Assembly: GCA_046153645.1 (NCBI GenBank)
Contig: JBJXGI010000074.1
Span: forward strand, 1-27,229
Direction: 5' to 3'
Source of the DNA: Elusimicrobiota bacterium
GTDB lineage: Bacteria > Elusimicrobiota > Elusimicrobia > F11
DNA length: 27,229 bases
Within the stretch, counting starts at the first letter, position 1, and each line of letters starts with the position of its first letter. Positions 16,812 through 27,151 of the stretch are shown here, one piece after another. The position numbers and the translations under genes are program-made. The notes beneath the pieces are model-generated. The model worked only from the letters and a program-made list of their open reading frames with translations. It was not told the origin of the DNA and did not search any database.

Positions 16812-17432
16812 ATGCTTAAAAAGTTATCATTCTTCAGTCTTATCGCCGTTGCATTCACACTCTTCAGTTTCAAATCTATCCAAGCCGACCAACCTGAAAT
16901 CGGAAAACCAACTCCGAGTTTTACACTTTCTGACTCTAATGGAAAAAATCATTCCATTTCAGATTTTAAAGGGAAACATGTAATACTTGAGTGGATCAAC
17001 CTCAGTTGTCCTTTTGTCAGAAAACATTACGATACTGCCAACATGCAAAAACTTCAAAAAGAATGGACAGATAAGGGCGCCATCTGGCTTTCAATTGCTT
17101 CTTCGGCTGAGGGCAAACAAGGTTTTTTTAATGGAGCCAAATGGAATGAACTCATTAAAAAAGAAAATGCCAGTATGACGGCGGTTTTGCTCGATCCAGC
17201 AGGCAAGGTTGGAAAACTCTACGGAGCCAAAACAACTCCTCACATGTTTGTTATTGATCCCAAAGGAAACATAATTTACAAAGGGGCCATTGACGACAAC
17301 TCAAGTTATGACAAAGATGACGTTCAAGGTGCAAAAAATTACGTATCACAAGCCTTAACAGAATCAATGGCCAACAAACCAGTCAGCGTTCCTGTCACCG
17401 AACCCTACGGCTGTTCCGTTAAATACAAATAG
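16812..17432 (+). CDS. Exported redoxin (AhpC/TSA-like, PrxL-like) protein
   Basis: Signal peptide, LEWINLSCPFV, TTPHMF, YKGAIDD, C-terminal YGCSVKY; GGAGG RBS. Confidence 0.85.
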   Translation: MLKKLSFFSLIAVAFTLFSFKSIQADQPEIGKPTPSFTLSDSNGKNHSISDFKGKHVILEWINLSCPFVRKHYDTANMQKLQKEWTDKGAIWLSIASSAEGKQGFFNGAKWNELIKKENASMTAVLLDPAGKVGKLYGAKTTPHMFVIDPKGNIIYKGAIDDNSSYDKDDVQGAKNYVSQALTESMANKPVSVPVTEPYGCSVKYK

Positions 17433-22570: not shown

Positions 22571-24040
22571 ATGAGGAGAATAATAATTTCCACCTACGCT
22601 CTAGCATTCTTTATTTTATCCCCGCCCTTATTCGCCAAACCGAAACTCATTGTTTTTATCATTATTGACCAGATGCGGGCTGATTACTTTGATCGCTTTT
22701 CTTCTCAGTGGGAAGGTGGTTTTAAAAAATTTCAAAACCAAGGTGCCTTTTTTAAGGAAGCGCATCACCGACATGTTCCCACTGAAACCGCTCCCGGCCA
22801 TGCGGTTATTTCAACAGGGCGATCTCCCAGGCAAAACGGCATTATTGGAAATGAATGGTATGATAGAAACTCAAAAAAAGTAACACCTTCAGTCTTTGAC
22901 CCCATATACAAATTAAGCCCAGAAAACCTTAAAACCCCGACACTGGGAGACATCTTAAAAGACCAAGACCCCACAACAAAAGTAGTTTCAATCTCACTAA
23001 AAGATCGATCTGCCCTATTTATGGGTGGCAAAAAAGCCAATTTAAGTATTTGGTTTGATCGGGGAAGAAAAAAGTTCGAGTCCTCCGCTTATTTTGCGCC
23101 GCTTCCTAGCACCATAGAAGAATTTAATCGTGAACTAAAACAAAATGAGCCCGCGCTTGATGGTTTTTCCCCAACAGCTGGTTTTGAATTTTCTCAATCA
23201 TCAAAAGCGGATTTCTGGTTATTTAAATTGGCTCTTTTTCTCTTAGAAAAAGAAAATTTAGGAAAAGATTCCAGCACGGACATTCTATCAGTGAGCTTTT
23301 CAACCCCTGACTATATTGGACATCGATTTGGCCCCGACAGTGAGGAAATTAAACGCGAATATCAATCCCTCGATTTAACTCTTCAAGATTTAATAGATGA
23401 AGTTTCGAGGCAGATTGGTGAAGATCAGATTTTATGGGTGTTAACCGCTGACCATGGAGTTCTTCCTATCCCAGAATCTAAAGAGGGTCTTAAAATGGGT
23501 GCTAAGCGGATTTTCGCAAAAAATTTAACCCAAGATTTTGAAGCTCGCCTCAAAAAAGTTTTCCCTGCTATTAAAGGGAAAATAATTTCACAATGCCTTA
23601 TTCCTGATGTTTATTTGGAACCTTCAATTATTCCGAAAAGGCCCCATGAGCGAGCGTTCTTTTTTGAAAAAATTTACGCCACTCTCATACAAAACCCTGA
23701 TATCGCAAACATTTATATCCCAGGTACATCGAAAAAAAACTCCGTTACAGAGAATTTCTATTTTGATCAAAGTTATTATGCAGGAAGATCGGGTGATTTT
23801 TTGGTACAGGTAAAACCAGGGATTCTCGTCACTGACAAAAAATCAGGAACCAGTCATGGAACCGTTTATAACTACGACACACATGTTCCTCTCATTTTTA
23901 TGGGCAAAGGAATCAAGCCTCAAATCATTACTCAAAAAGTCAGTACTCTCGATATTGTTCCCACTATTGCCAGTTGTTTGGACCTTTCTTTTCAATCATC
24001 GGAAGACTCGCAGTCTCTTTTAAATCTTATTAACAAATAA
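22571..24040 (+). CDS. PafA-like alkaline phosphatase superfamily protein
   Basis: Signal peptide, IDQMRAD, PTETAPGHA (Thr nucleophile), SLKDR, DYIGH, TADHG, SHG. Confidence 0.88.
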   Translation: MRRIIISTYALAFFILSPPLFAKPKLIVFIIIDQMRADYFDRFSSQWEGGFKKFQNQGAFFKEAHHRHVPTETAPGHAVISTGRSPRQNGIIGNEWYDRNSKKVTPSVFDPIYKLSPENLKTPTLGDILKDQDPTTKVVSISLKDRSALFMGGKKANLSIWFDRGRKKFESSAYFAPLPSTIEEFNRELKQNEPALDGFSPTAGFEFSQSSKADFWLFKLALFLLEKENLGKDSSTDILSVSFSTPDYIGHRFGPDSEEIKREYQSLDLTLQDLIDEVSRQIGEDQILWVLTADHGVLPIPESKEGLKMGAKRIFAKNLTQDFEARLKKVFPAIKGKIISQCLIPDVYLEPSIIPKRPHERAFFFEKIYATLIQNPDIANIYIPGTSKKNSVTENFYFDQSYYAGRSGDFLVQVKPGILVTDKKSGTSHGTVYNYDTHVPLIFMGKGIKPQIITQKVSTLDIVPTIASCLDLSFQSSEDSQSLLNLINK

Positions 24041-24084
24041 TCTACAGGAAATAACCACCGTCCCCATACAAAATGGCCAGAAAA

Positions 24085-24123
24085 TAGAAAATCCAGGTCG
24101 AGCATATCGGCCTGGATTTTCTA
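24085..24123. terminator. Bidirectional intrinsic terminator
   Basis: TAGAAAATCCAGG...CCTGGATTTTCTA, perfect 13-bp arms between convergent genes, T-rich on both strands. Confidence 0.85.
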
Positions 24124-24145
24124 GAACTACTATCGCTAATTTAAA

Positions 24146-24178
24146 TTAGCATCCGCAAGGGCTTTTAGGACCGAACAT
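24146..24178 (-). CDS. Putative 10-aa micropeptide MFGPKSPCGC
   Basis: GGAGGTGAT-ATT-ATG TTC GGT CCT AAA AGC CCT TGC GGA TGC TAA; lies between the peroxiredoxin stop and the terminator. Confidence 0.6.
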   Translation of the reverse strand: MFGPKSPCGC

Positions 24179-24242
24179 AATATCACCTCCAAATAAATTT
24201 AAAAAAAAATCCCCCATTGCAAGCTTCGAGGATGAGAACCAC

Positions 24243-24824
24243 CTATTTTACTGTCGCGAAATATTCTTTTGCACCTTTAGGATCGGCTTTCATGGTTTGA
24301 GCCCCAGGTTTCCAACTAGAAGGGCACACTTCGCCAGTTTTTTCTACTTGTTGAAAAGCAGCCAAAACTCTTAAAGTTTCTTCAGGATTTCTTCCCACGG
24401 CTAAATCATGAACCACTTCATAAGCAATTTGCCCTTTGGGATTAATAATGAATAATCCACGCAGCGCCAAACCAGCTTCTGTTAAAACGCCATAATCATT
24501 GGCAATCGTTTTATTCAAATCGGAAAGAAGAGGATAATTGATTTCGCCCAAACCGCCTTCTTTACGAGGGGTATTAATCCAAGCAAGGTGGGTGTAATGA
24601 CTATCAACGGAGCAACCAATAAGTTCGGCATTTAACTTCTTAAATTCCTCAGCTTTATTTGAAAAATCAACAATTTCTGTTGGACAAACAAAGGTGAAAT
24701 CCAAGGGATAAAAGAACAAAATAACCCATTTCCCTTTATATTGAGACAATGAAACATCTCGAAATTCATGACCAACGACGGCTTTGCCCTTAAAATCAGG
24801 GGCTGATTTTTGCACAAGACTCAT
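24243..24824 (-). CDS. ahpC: 2-Cys peroxiredoxin (Prx1/AhpC family)
   Basis: [17 protein letters not shown], resolving VCP, C-terminal YF. Confidence 0.93.
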
Positions 24825-24850
24825 AACTTTACTCTCCTTAGATGAAATAA

Positions 24851-25462
24851 TTATTTTTCTTCAATTGTAAGCTTCGTGATTGTAACAGCGGTTTTAGGGC
24901 GATCGTTCCCATCTTTATCAACTTTGCTAATTTTTTCTACCACGTCATAACCTTCTGTCACTTCACCAAAAATTGTGTGGTTATTGTTGAGCCATGGTGT
25001 TTTAGCGGTGGTCACAAAAAACTGACTCCCGTTCGTTCCAGGGCCTGCGTTGGCCATCGCCAAAATTCCTACTTTATCGAACGTTTTTCCTGAGGAAAAT
25101 TCATCTTGAAATTGATAACCAGGACCGCCGGTTCCGGTTCCAAGAGGATCTCCCCCTTGAATCATGAAATTAGGAATAACGCGGTGGAAAACAAGTCCAT
25201 CATAAAAAGCTCTTTTTGTTTTTTGACCGTTTTTGGGATCCACAAATTCTTTGGTTCCTTTGGCTAAATCAACGAAATTTTTTACTGTGATGGGCGCTTC
25301 AGCGGTAAAGAGTTTACAAGTGAATTTCCCAAGGGTTGTATCGAATACAGCATAGGTTGTTTTGTTACTCATAGATGATATTTTCTCCGTTTTAGATTGC
25401 GCGATAATGATCCCCGAAACAAGGGCCATACCGGCTAGAGTTAATGAAATCTTTTTAAACAT
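24851..25462 (-). CDS. Exported cyclophilin-type peptidyl-prolyl isomerase
   Basis: Signal peptide, [29 protein letters not shown]. Confidence 0.95.
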
Positions 25463-25565
25463 GAATTGTTACCTCCGTATGAAAAGTTTGTTTCATTACG
25501 ATGAGAATATCATTTTGTTCCAGAAGAATCGATAAGAGGCGTGCATTATTAAATCAGAAAATGGG

Positions 25566-26492
25566 CTATCCCTTGTCAGAGAGTAATTTTTTCTTAACAG
25601 TCTTTTCAAACTGAAGTAAATGAAGCAAGTTTTCAGTTTTATCTTTTCCCCAACGGCCGAACCAATATCCAAGGCGTTTTAATTGCAAATCGCTAGCAGA
25701 AAATAGCTGAGAAGGGACTGGCAATTGATGAATGACTTGGTCATCAATATGAGCATCTTCTTTGATAAAAAAGGCAAGAGCTCCCCACTTTTTTAAAAGA
25801 AATAACGCGGGGCGTGGATCTTGTTCTTTGAAGAGGTATTCTAATTCATGCCTTCGGCGAACCGGTGACAATAAATCCAGAAACTTTTTTTGGACAGCAA
25901 GAAAAATAAGGCGTTCTGTTTTTTCTTCTATATGAAGCCCCAGCCTTCCAGCAAACCGGGCAGCGCGAAAAACGCGTGTGGGGTCATCTTGAAAACTGAG
26001 GTCGTGTAAAACGCAAAGTTGCTTATTTTCAAGGTCTTTCAAACCACCAAAAGGATCTAACACCTCACCATAAGTAGACTTATTCAATGAGCAAGCGATG
26101 GCGTTGATCGAAAAATCTCTCCGTTTTAAATCAAGCGCCACAGTCGAAGCTTTGACAATAGGGAGTTGAGCTGGCTTTGGATAACTTTCTTCACGAGCCG
26201 TTACAACATCAACTTTTTGATCTTGGTTAAATATAAGTGAAAAGGTTAAAAATTGAGGATGAGAAACCATCTTGACCTTTAAATCTTCCGCTATCCTTTT
26301 CACCAGTAGCTCAACATTTCCCTCCGACATAAAGTCGGCGTCAAAAATAGGCCGATTTAAAATTAAATCGCGAACCACACCACCAACAATATATAAAGGA
26401 TATTTTTGTAGATCGGAGATGGCACTCATCTTTTGAAAAAGGTCTCTAAAAAATGGCGGGAGAGAAGAAAAGTGCTGCGAACTTAACTTCAT
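25566..26492 (-). CDS. Class II tRNA nucleotidyltransferase (CCA- or A-adding)
   Basis: VGGVVRD...DAD, RRDFSINA, DPFGG, SFQDDPTR. Confidence 0.88.
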   Translation of the reverse strand: MKLSSQHFSSLPPFFRDLFQKMSAISDLQKYPLYIVGGVVRDLILNRPIFDADFMSEGNVELLVKRIAEDLKVKMVSHPQFLTFSLIFNQDQKVDVVTAREESYPKPAQLPIVKASTVALDLKRRDFSINAIACSLNKSTYGEVLDPFGGLKDLENKQLCVLHDLSFQDDPTRVFRAARFAGRLGLHIEEKTERLIFLAVQKKFLDLLSPVRRRHELEYLFKEQDPRPALFLLKKWGALAFFIKEDAHIDDQVIHQLPVPSQLFSASDLQLKRLGYWFGRWGKDKTENLLHLLQFEKTVKKKLLSDKG

Positions 26493-27151
26493 TTTAAGGG
26501 AATAATAAGTTCAGGTTGTGATTGGATGCGTTCATAAGCAGAAACGTATATTTCAAGTTGATCATTCTCTTTTTTTATCCACTCAAGGCCTAATAAAATT
26601 TTATCGCGGTCGCTCCCAGGTAACGTTTCATCAAAAGGCAATACAATAGGCAATCCATAGGTTCTAGCATGAAACGGGCTGAGAAATCGGTATGTTTTTT
26701 TATTCTGGTCGCAAATGGTTTTGGCGATTTCTGACTGAAGAAGCATTTCGTCATCCCATTCTACAGTTGTAATCAAGTCATCTAAACCGAAGAAAGTAAG
26801 CGGGGCATAATCCAAGGTAATAGCTTCTTCATTATTTTCGTCTTCTGATATGGGAAATCTCAATTTTGAAAAATCTTCTTTAGTCTTAGCAATCCATTTT
26901 TCTTTTTCAGAAGCATGGTCAAAAGGGTAAACAAAGGCAAACAGTTCTGCTGTTTTATCATGATAAAGCAAAAAACTTTCAGCGTAGAAAAATTCTTTAC
27001 ATGATTCACATTGGGTCATATTGAGTTCACCACCCAACAAGATATCTCTTAGTTCGGGATCCTCATGAACACTAATTGACGACCAAACCTCTGTTTGATT
27101 GGGGTATTGACACTCTGGGCAAACCACATCTTTGGGGACAATAACTGACAT
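26489..27151 (-). CDS. CpXC-domain protein
   Basis: CPEC...CESC Zn-ribbon-like pair and LLYHD motif; overlaps the nucleotidyltransferase start. Confidence 0.75.
   Translation of the reverse strand: MSVIVPKDVVCPECQYPNQTEVWSSISVHEDPELRDILLGGELNMTQCESCKEFFYAESFLLYHDKTAELFAFVYPFDHASEKEKWIAKTKEDFSKLRFPISEDENNEEAITLDYAPLTFFGLDDLITTVEWDDEMLLQSEIAKTICDQNKKTYRFLSPFHARTYGLPIVLPFDETLPGSDRDKILLGLEWIKKENDQLEIYVSAYERIQSQPELIIPLK

Follow-up and report, generated by a model that had tools for sequence, protein, structure and literature searches.

A conserved nine-codon gene of the class Elusimicrobia, predicted to encode a peptide ending in Pro-Cys-Gly-Cys, as a candidate gene-encoded dithiol

The stretch of DNA analyzed here (27,229 nucleotides; hereafter the window) carries on its minus strand a gene for a cyclophilin-type peptidyl-prolyl isomerase with a signal-like N-terminal segment (24851-25462), positioned 26 bases upstream of a gene for a typical 2-Cys peroxiredoxin of 193 aa (Prx; 24243-24824). 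The Prx displays the motif FTFVCPTE and a C-terminal VCP motif, clusters with proteins matching the Pfam families AhpC-TSA and 1-cysPrx_C, and its gene ends in a TAG stop codon at 24245-24243. Behind this stop, sequence and conservation revealed a micro-gene on the same strand (24146-24178) that consists of ATG (24178-24176), the nine codons TTC GGT CCT AAA AGC CCT TGC GGA TGC (to 24149), and TAA (24148-24146). The predicted product, MFGPKSPCGC, equals the family-typical MGPKSPCGC with one additional Phe codon behind the start. A Shine-Dalgarno (SD) site, GGAGGTGAT (24182-24190, minus strand), precedes the frame with 7 bases from GGAGG to ATG, and the sequence TATT... follows the site. We take GGAGGTGAT to be a perfect complement of the anti-SD sequence; the motif for the 3' end of 16S rRNA gave no match in the window's assembly. 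The micro-gene is predicted to be translated from this strong SD site of its own. A look through public sequencing runs turned up four DNA runs from a single biofilter-metagenome study and no RNA run. The original prediction had placed a micro-ORF with this product and an SD site between the prx stop and the terminator, and the sequence, the coordinates, and the 7-base spacing were all borne out. With a length of 33 bases, the micro-gene lies below what any gene caller would list and, just as had been claimed, is too short for the ORF list, which holds at this position only a 23-codon frame with its ATG at 24217 and without an SD site ahead of it.

The cyclophilin-prx-peptide unit is closed by an intrinsic terminator hairpin (24085-24123, minus strand), for which a 13-bp stem had been proposed and which, upon RNA folding, indeed formed 13 pairs and 3 inner pairs followed by a U-rich tail; beyond it lies a convergent gene (22571-24040, plus strand, from the ORF list). 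This terminator was missed by our promoter/terminator scan because the scan accepts only loops of 3-8 bases, and the same scan listed no promoter for the micro-gene. The spacer between the prx stop and the micro-gene contains a weak hairpin (ATCCTC/GGGGGAT) followed by U9 (24201-24233, minus strand), present in the minimum-energy fold and not in the centroid, which is possibly a partial terminator. By eye, relatives of the window's family show no such spacer hairpin and T-run, and their spacer is shorter, at 35-48 bases in 10 of 11. Searching positions 23500-25700 against Rfam 15 returned six matches, all with E ≥ 0.5 and far under the gathering scores, none of which overlaps 24146-24190. Two further genes of the window encode proteins with thioredoxin-like or CxxC features. 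One (16812-17432, plus strand), 6.7 kb from the micro-gene, encodes a 206-aa thioredoxin-like protein of the Redoxin type with a signal-like N-terminus that groups with a TlpA-like cluster. The other (26489-27151, minus strand) encodes a 220-aa protein that was given no family and has two N-terminal CxxC pairs (VVCPECQ ... CESCKE), and it overlaps the start of a CCA-adding-enzyme-like gene by 4 bases.

We examined conservation within the window's family (f1) by anchoring the comparison on prx synteny and not on the peptide motif. Prx orthologues were present in 11/11 genomes of the family, and behind every one of them we found an SD site, ATG, codons for GP[KRN][SK]PCGC, and TAA. In these relatives the SD site is mostly AGGAGGTG, the peptides read GPKSPCGC, GPNKPCGC, or GPRKPCGC after the start, and a GC-rich hairpin with a T-run follows soon after the micro-gene in 11/11 (by eye). 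Variation, which the original prediction had proposed to test for synonymous changes downstream of prx, is mostly synonymous: across 12 sequences including the window, 1, 2, and 7 columns vary at the first, second, and third codon position, respectively; pairwise codon differences amount to 182 synonymous vs. 56 non-synonymous; and the Ser codon is AGT, AGC, or TCT. Mean identity is 84% over the 27 bases of the frame vs. 28% over the following 27 bases. A BLASTN search with the whole intergenic stretch aligned to one relative only, over the frame itself, and to nothing else. When we scanned the 12 family genomes for the pattern GGN CCN NNN NNN CCN TGY GGN TGY stop, with the reversed pattern as control, each genome gave one match and the control gave none.

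The same pattern was then matched in 115/393 genomes of the class Elusimicrobia, with 3 control matches. A few pattern matches ending in TGG are chance; the genuine matches all have ATG (once GTG) directly before them or one codon upstream, together with an SD site, although neither ATG nor SD was part of the pattern's definition. A pattern that includes ATG and allows one mismatch was found in 113/393 class genomes vs. 0 control matches. By family, matches occur in f1 (11/11, plus the window), f5 (11/11), f4 (10/12), f13 (57/78), f12 (5/6), f3 (5/7), f9 (7/17), f2 (2/2), f11 (1/2), and f14, f8, f17, and f6 (1/1 each). The micro-gene was found in none of the genomes of f7 (0/145; genomes of 0.9-2.9 Mb, mostly 1.1-1.9 Mb), f16 (0/80), f10 (0/15), and f15 (0/2), nor in a sample of other classes of the phylum (0/109). 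Some genomes (G054, G014, G032, G041, G043, and others) carry two or three copies in different neighborhoods, for example one behind a thioredoxin gene and another beside a divergent Redoxin gene or a pirin/Zn-ADH pair.

Extending the scan to one genome per species of all prokaryotes gave at least 120 matches. Among those listed, 107 have both an SD site and a stop, 9 end in TGG, and 4 have a stop without an SD site. The latter four (Cyclobacterium, an archaeal MAG, and the related loci L228 and L231) we set aside as chance matches or C-termini of longer frames. Titles were available for 80 of the listed matches: 8 come from other taxa (Paraburkholderia, Cyclobacterium, Deltaproteobacteria, Myxococcales, Deinococcus, Phycisphaerales, an archaeon, and Synechococcus), all within the TGG or SD-less groups, and the remaining 72 are labeled Elusimicrobia, Elusimicrobiota, or merely 'bacterium'. 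The titles of the matches listed thus indicate that the lineage of the micro-gene is the class Elusimicrobia and that the window derives from a MAG of this class.

Aligning 115 unique loci from the class revealed the peptides MGPKTPCGC (70), MGPKSPCGC (21), MGPKKPCGC (10), MGPQKPCGC (5), MGPNKPCGC (4), MGPRKPCGC (3), MGPTKPCGC (1), and MGPEKPCGC (1). All 115 start with ATG, and the stops are TAA in 81, TAG in 19, and TGA in 15. Four-fold degenerate third positions hold 0.13-0.5 bit vs. 2 bits at the first and second positions, and the flanks hold approximately 0. A G-rich SD site is conserved at -14 to -9 with its peak at -10, and an exact GGAGG stands 4-10 bases ahead of the ATG in 104/115. 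Across the class, conservation of frame, SD site, and stop therefore reaches down to single codons, with an SD site and start at fixed spacing, synonymous-site changes, and unconstrained flanks as in protein-coding genes. That a frame of only 33 bases, listed by no gene caller, might be a chance open frame or a non-coding DNA or RNA motif is a reading to which we give almost no credence, given the codon-position pattern, the switch of Ser between AGY and TCN, the interchange of all three stops, the conserved SD site and start, the 0 control matches in 393 genomes, and the absence of Rfam matches near a gathering score. In four f4 loci (L084, L085, L086, and L090) we also noticed a common GC-rich hairpin (GGGGCACGGATCCCCCCGATGCCGTGCCCC), with TTTGG before it, 40-80 bases past the micro-gene, which may be a conserved terminator or small RNA element.

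The one-mismatch scan, which is able to reveal such changes, showed P3, P6, C7, G8, and C9 to be invariant in all copies. Changes outside these positions comprise MDPKKPCGC (4 copies), MAPKTPCGC (1), one copy at another locus with a GTG start, and an extra residue behind Met in three copies, namely Phe (the window), Ile (G002), and Met (L171); at least one basic residue precedes PCGC in nearly all copies. As read from these predicted peptides, the N-terminus is tolerant and the invariant part is Pro-Cys-Gly-Cys-COOH. The start Met is normally cleaved in Met-Gly and kept in Met-Phe, so the peptide of most species would become GPK(T/S/K)PCGC whereas that of the window would keep Met-Phe; its retention suggests that the N-terminus is not the business end.

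We next turned to the genes around the micro-gene. Approximately 6 kb per side was fetched for 40 copies, and the neighbors were clustered and named with Pfam; directly upstream genes (same strand, ending within 260 bases) were counted in 90 unique loci flanked by 800 bases or more per side. The upstream gene encodes a TetR regulator in 44/90 loci (in 37 of the 44, TlpA- or DsbA-like genes follow within 1 kb), a thioredoxin with WCGPC or WCAPC in 13/90, Prx in 10/90, TlpA in 1/90, and an enolase-family protein in 1/90, while 21/90 have none of these five tested families in that position. A thioredoxin-fold gene lies within 1 kb in 67/90 loci and, among loci whose sequence extends 5.5 kb or more in each direction, in 22/32 vs. 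5/64 control points 4 kb away. Rarer arrangements are TetR -> NmrA-like -> peptide, TetR -> nitroreductase -> peptide, TetR -> peptide -> Cu/Zn SOD, pirin -> peptide -> Zn-ADH, (MarR) YceI -> peptide -> Usp, and, in L119, a TlpA-DsbD fusion directly upstream of the peptide gene; some copies have unrelated neighbors (succinyl-CoA ligase, glycosyltransferases, an RND pump). Since synteny is inherited, the independent arrangements number approximately five or six and not 90. With few exceptions, they suggest a role in thiol, oxidant, electrophile, or soft-metal stress.

These arrangements bear on what the frame might do locally. The order cyclophilin-prx-peptide is constant in 10/10 f1 relatives with sufficient flank, so the link to cyclophilin holds within this family, and it holds there only. 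The idea of a specific Prx partner was not supported by the wider comparison: the micro-gene stands beside prx only in f1 (10/90 loci), in contrast to what would be expected of a dedicated Prx reductant such as AhpF or AhpD, and none of seven prx orthologues from other families (L014-L020) has such a frame downstream (0/7). Nor does the window's Prx lack a reductant. The genome (99.7% complete) encodes a thioredoxin reductase (419 bits, above the cut-off) and thioredoxins elsewhere, which indicates that the Prx has its canonical reductant. It is also conceivable, if very improbable, that the frame acts in cis (by coupling, attenuation, or as a Cys-tRNA or stalling sensor) and that its peptide is functionless in itself. 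Such a device would suit a frame in which two of nine codons specify Cys and which, in many loci, lies 2-19 bases past the TetR gene and 50-200 bases ahead of a TlpA-like gene; yet conservation across unrelated contexts covers the whole amino-acid sequence and not only the Cys codons, and in f1 no further frame stands between the micro-gene and the terminator with its convergent gene, leaving nothing downstream to regulate.

A further suggestion had been that of a RiPP-like precursor. Precursor genes can be very short: the microcin C precursor gene mccA has 7 codons and sets a precedent for a gene of fewer than ten codons that is translated into a functional peptide; and a C-terminal Cys is the substrate type of known peptide decarboxylases, so that the peptide could be matured into a RiPP or cofactor, for example by C-terminal Cys decarboxylation or cyclization. 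MccA is an antibiotic precursor that needs adjacent MccB-type maturases, whereas we saw none near the micro-gene, and no maturase-like or other modifying enzyme family is common to the Prx, Trx, TetR, and other contexts; a single radical SAM gene was found, at one locus only and 1.2 kb away. Nine residues also leave no room for a leader in a leader/core layout. The suggestion accordingly fared poorly, and we see only a slight chance that the peptide is such a precursor.

Metal binding has more in its favor. The peptide could be a minimal chelator of metals or metalloids, a one-motif analogue of metallothionein or phytochelatin. Through the C-terminal Cys-Gly-Cys and the Lys nearby, one or two peptides would hold each ion of Cu(I), Hg(II), Zn/Cd, or As(III), either to buffer the metal or to pass it on. 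CxC is a classic metallothionein motif, and the neighboring Lys is likewise found in metallothioneins. In locus L117 (G023:C26:66900-78900), a copy encoding MGPKKPCGC sits within a mer-like unit that spans approximately 560 bases on its upstream side and 260 on its downstream side, in the order MerR, a MerT-HMA fusion, a Cys-rich protein of approximately 160 aa, the micro-gene, and a 39-codon frame with its own SD site, a GTG start, one membrane helix, and two CC pairs. Another copy lies ahead of the Cu/Zn SOD gene, and TlpA-like proteins, which serve copper-centre assembly in other bacteria, are frequent neighbors. (At L117 itself, TlpA- and DsbD-like genes lie approximately 4.3 kb farther on.) Metal genes, however, were seen in only 2 of approximately 40 annotated neighborhoods, most contexts being of the Prx, Trx, or electrophile type. 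Known metallothioneins contain many Cys clusters in at least approximately 25 aa, whereas here a single CxC, with two Cys in 9-10 residues, falls far under any of them. We therefore rate a dedicated chelator as unlikely, with the proviso that this role overlaps that of a small thiol, because low-molecular-weight thiols buffer metals too.

Disulfide exchange is another chemistry that suits the motif. According to a preprint (bioRxiv 10.64898/2026.01.27.701630), H-Cys-Gly-Cys-NH2 has a strained disulfide, with a redox potential E0' of -0.167 V, and catalyzes disulfide formation, cleavage, and rearrangement, and designed, encoded CXC peptides (CXC-linker-HDEL) replace PDI in yeast. The micro-gene product shares the Cys-Gly-Cys motif whose redox potential and exchange activity were measured there; the designed peptides are man-made, with an N-terminal motif, and targeted to the yeast ER, whereas the Elusimicrobia peptide is natural, with its motif at a free C-terminus and no targeting signal. 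A natural CXC 'mini-PDI', exported or acting at the membrane together with TlpA-, DsbA-, and DsbD-like proteins, would agree with the genes downstream of 37/44 TetR-type loci, with the TlpA-DsbD fusion in L119, and with the ABC or RND transporter genes near some copies. We nevertheless regard it as quite unlikely: the peptide is without a signal peptide, no transporter is common to the contexts, Dsb-type genes are missing beside the copies of f1, whose neighbors are Prx and an exported cyclophilin, and in the preprint CGC is the weakest of the ranked peptides in isomerase activity.

The most frequent neighbor, the TetR regulator, matches TetR_N and TetR_C_13 in Pfam; in structure searches its best match was 3qbm (9e-16), and 1sgm and 4yze (YxaF and NemR) matched with E = 1e-8 and 1.4e-6, respectively. 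Its residues Cys101 and Cys105 are invariant within GC[KR]AGC. The two-Cys TetR protein GbaA is described as an electrophile/disulfide sensor for which a thiol-reactive ligand is postulated (PMC8693949), and the invariant Cys pair thus suggests that the Elusimicrobia regulator is of the same sensor kind. In f13, the TetR gene occurs in 58/78 genomes (E ≤ 1e-20; G329 has only a weak paralogue) and the micro-gene in 57/78; both are present in the same genomes and missing from the same genera. With the f13 TetR as query, the window's genome gave no match, and the Prx- and Trx-type loci are likewise without it. Among 61 TetR-adjacent loci, all of which keep the SD site, 21 read through in frame into the peptide, 10 have an in-frame stop before the ATG, and 30 are out of frame. 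In the read-through loci (including L122, L128, L129, L131, L132, L133, and L135), the TetR stop is lost and the frame crosses the SD site; near relatives are set apart by no more than a TAA or TAG within a linker of 4-6 codons. An AlphaFold2 model of the fusion gave a confident core (mean pLDDT 86.4) and an undocked fused tail at 51-54, a score too low to speak for or against docking.

Could the peptide then be a redox signal or sensor tail for this regulator? A free or C-terminally fused peptide would form a mixed disulfide with Cys101/Cys105 and thereby free the repressor, which would tally with the co-occurrence in f13, with the 21 loci that read into the peptide without a stop, and with the ligand postulated for GbaA. 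A comparable layout is known from large thioredoxin reductases and MerA, in which a flexible C-terminal tail with a vicinal Cys pair (GCUG, CC) shuttles electrons or metal to the active site of a partner, and the TetR-peptide fusions would carry a tail of this sort; these tails of the enzymes belong to the protein itself, whereas the Elusimicrobia peptide is free-standing in most genomes. We see a slim chance for this role, because most TetR-adjacent loci are out of frame or hold a stop while keeping the SD site, the modeled tail is undocked at its low pLDDT, adjoining genes are lost together anyway, and the window's genome, by the search with the f13 query, and the Prx- and Trx-type loci have the peptide without such a TetR. 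A Rosetta-stone argument from the in-frame fusions we rejected as weak, since in 30/61 loci the two frames do not match. We read the fusions as a side effect of the 2-19 base spacing, a hint of physical interplay and not evidence for it.

Beyond individual neighbors, we considered the thiol systems of the hosts. In the window's genome, a search for four thiol-pathway families (GshA, GCS2, GshB, and BshC) found none, and a glutaredoxin match was marginal (25 bits); other thiols, such as CoA, ergothioneine, or novel ones, may be present. A survey of 131 class genomes at least 90% complete found GCS2 in 3/131, all in f9, and BshC in 0/131; the two strong GCS2 matches (G019 and G306; f9) are in genomes without the micro-gene. 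The peptide-negative families f7, f16, and f10 are also without the glutathione and bacillithiol genes tested, and a complementary distribution of the peptide and these genes, which we had considered, was not seen class-wide.

A conserved frame in approximately one third of the genomes searched, together with thiol-stress neighbors, leads us to predict a two-cysteine peptide. Our preferred reading, to which we assign a probability of roughly 0.45, is that positions 24146-24178 (minus strand) hold a conserved gene whose predicted product likely serves as a small dithiol free to diffuse, taking the place of a low-molecular-weight thiol. The original interpretation is partly supported: the conserved coding unit and the thiol-redox neighborhoods fit the suggested ribosomally made low-molecular-weight dithiol or metal chelator. 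As a mechanism, the peptide would be made in quantity and act in trans in defense against peroxide, electrophiles, and soft metals. Its C-terminal Pro-Cys-Gly-Cys would alternate between the dithiol and a disulfide closed in an 11-membered ring, or capture soft metals or electrophiles, and the peptide would be recycled by thioredoxin and thioredoxin reductase. Co-expression would be with Prx in f1; in other families the partner would be Trx or a two-Cys TetR operon upon derepression. At the potential of approximately -0.167 V given in the preprint, a CGC disulfide is oxidizing relative to thioredoxin, so the dithiol would be a poor general reductant and might be more of an oxidant or isomerase. 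No dedicated reductase or transporter is common to the contexts.

Seen against known systems, the predicted dithiol resembles glutathione, bacillithiol, and mycothiol as a small cysteine-based thiol, with its gene likewise beside those for peroxidases, thioredoxin-fold proteins, and the electrophile response. The known compounds are monothiols made by enzymes, whereas the Elusimicrobia peptide is a predicted ribosomal product of a 9-10 codon gene and a vicinal dithiol. Bacilliredoxins also carry a CGC redox motif, in a folded protein of approximately 140 aa; a sequence relation to the peptide is neither possible nor claimed. To our knowledge, there is no known family of free-standing, ribosomally made thiol peptides shorter than 10 residues. 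In the literature searched, mostly without subscription journals, we found no description of GPKTPCGC, GPKSPCGC, or MGPKTPCGC; the only string match to KTPCGC was an unrelated vaccine paper, and queries on Elusimicrobia small ORFs or peroxiredoxin, on micropeptide low-molecular-weight thiols, and on Cys-Gly-Cys returned nothing relevant.

A bolder form of the proposal is that the class encodes its low-molecular-weight thiol directly, with a nine-codon gene giving the octapeptide GPK(T/S/K)PCGC, which would perform the jobs of glutathione (redox buffering, capture of electrophiles and metals, and feeding or relaying Prx/Trx chemistry) and be switched on by a two-Cys TetR sensor. This extension is tentative, and we think it rather more apt to fail than to hold. 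If true, it would be the first gene-encoded redox buffer and among the shortest functional genes known. The comparison also illustrates that synteny and codon-pattern conservation can reveal genes far under the length limit of gene callers. Should the peptide be produced and function in the way suggested, a redox or metal buffer would be the direct product of nine codons without a biosynthetic pathway; it would be a natural counterpart to the CXC peptide catalysts designed by chemists, and it would give a name to the missing thiol of a poorly known and mostly uncultured class.
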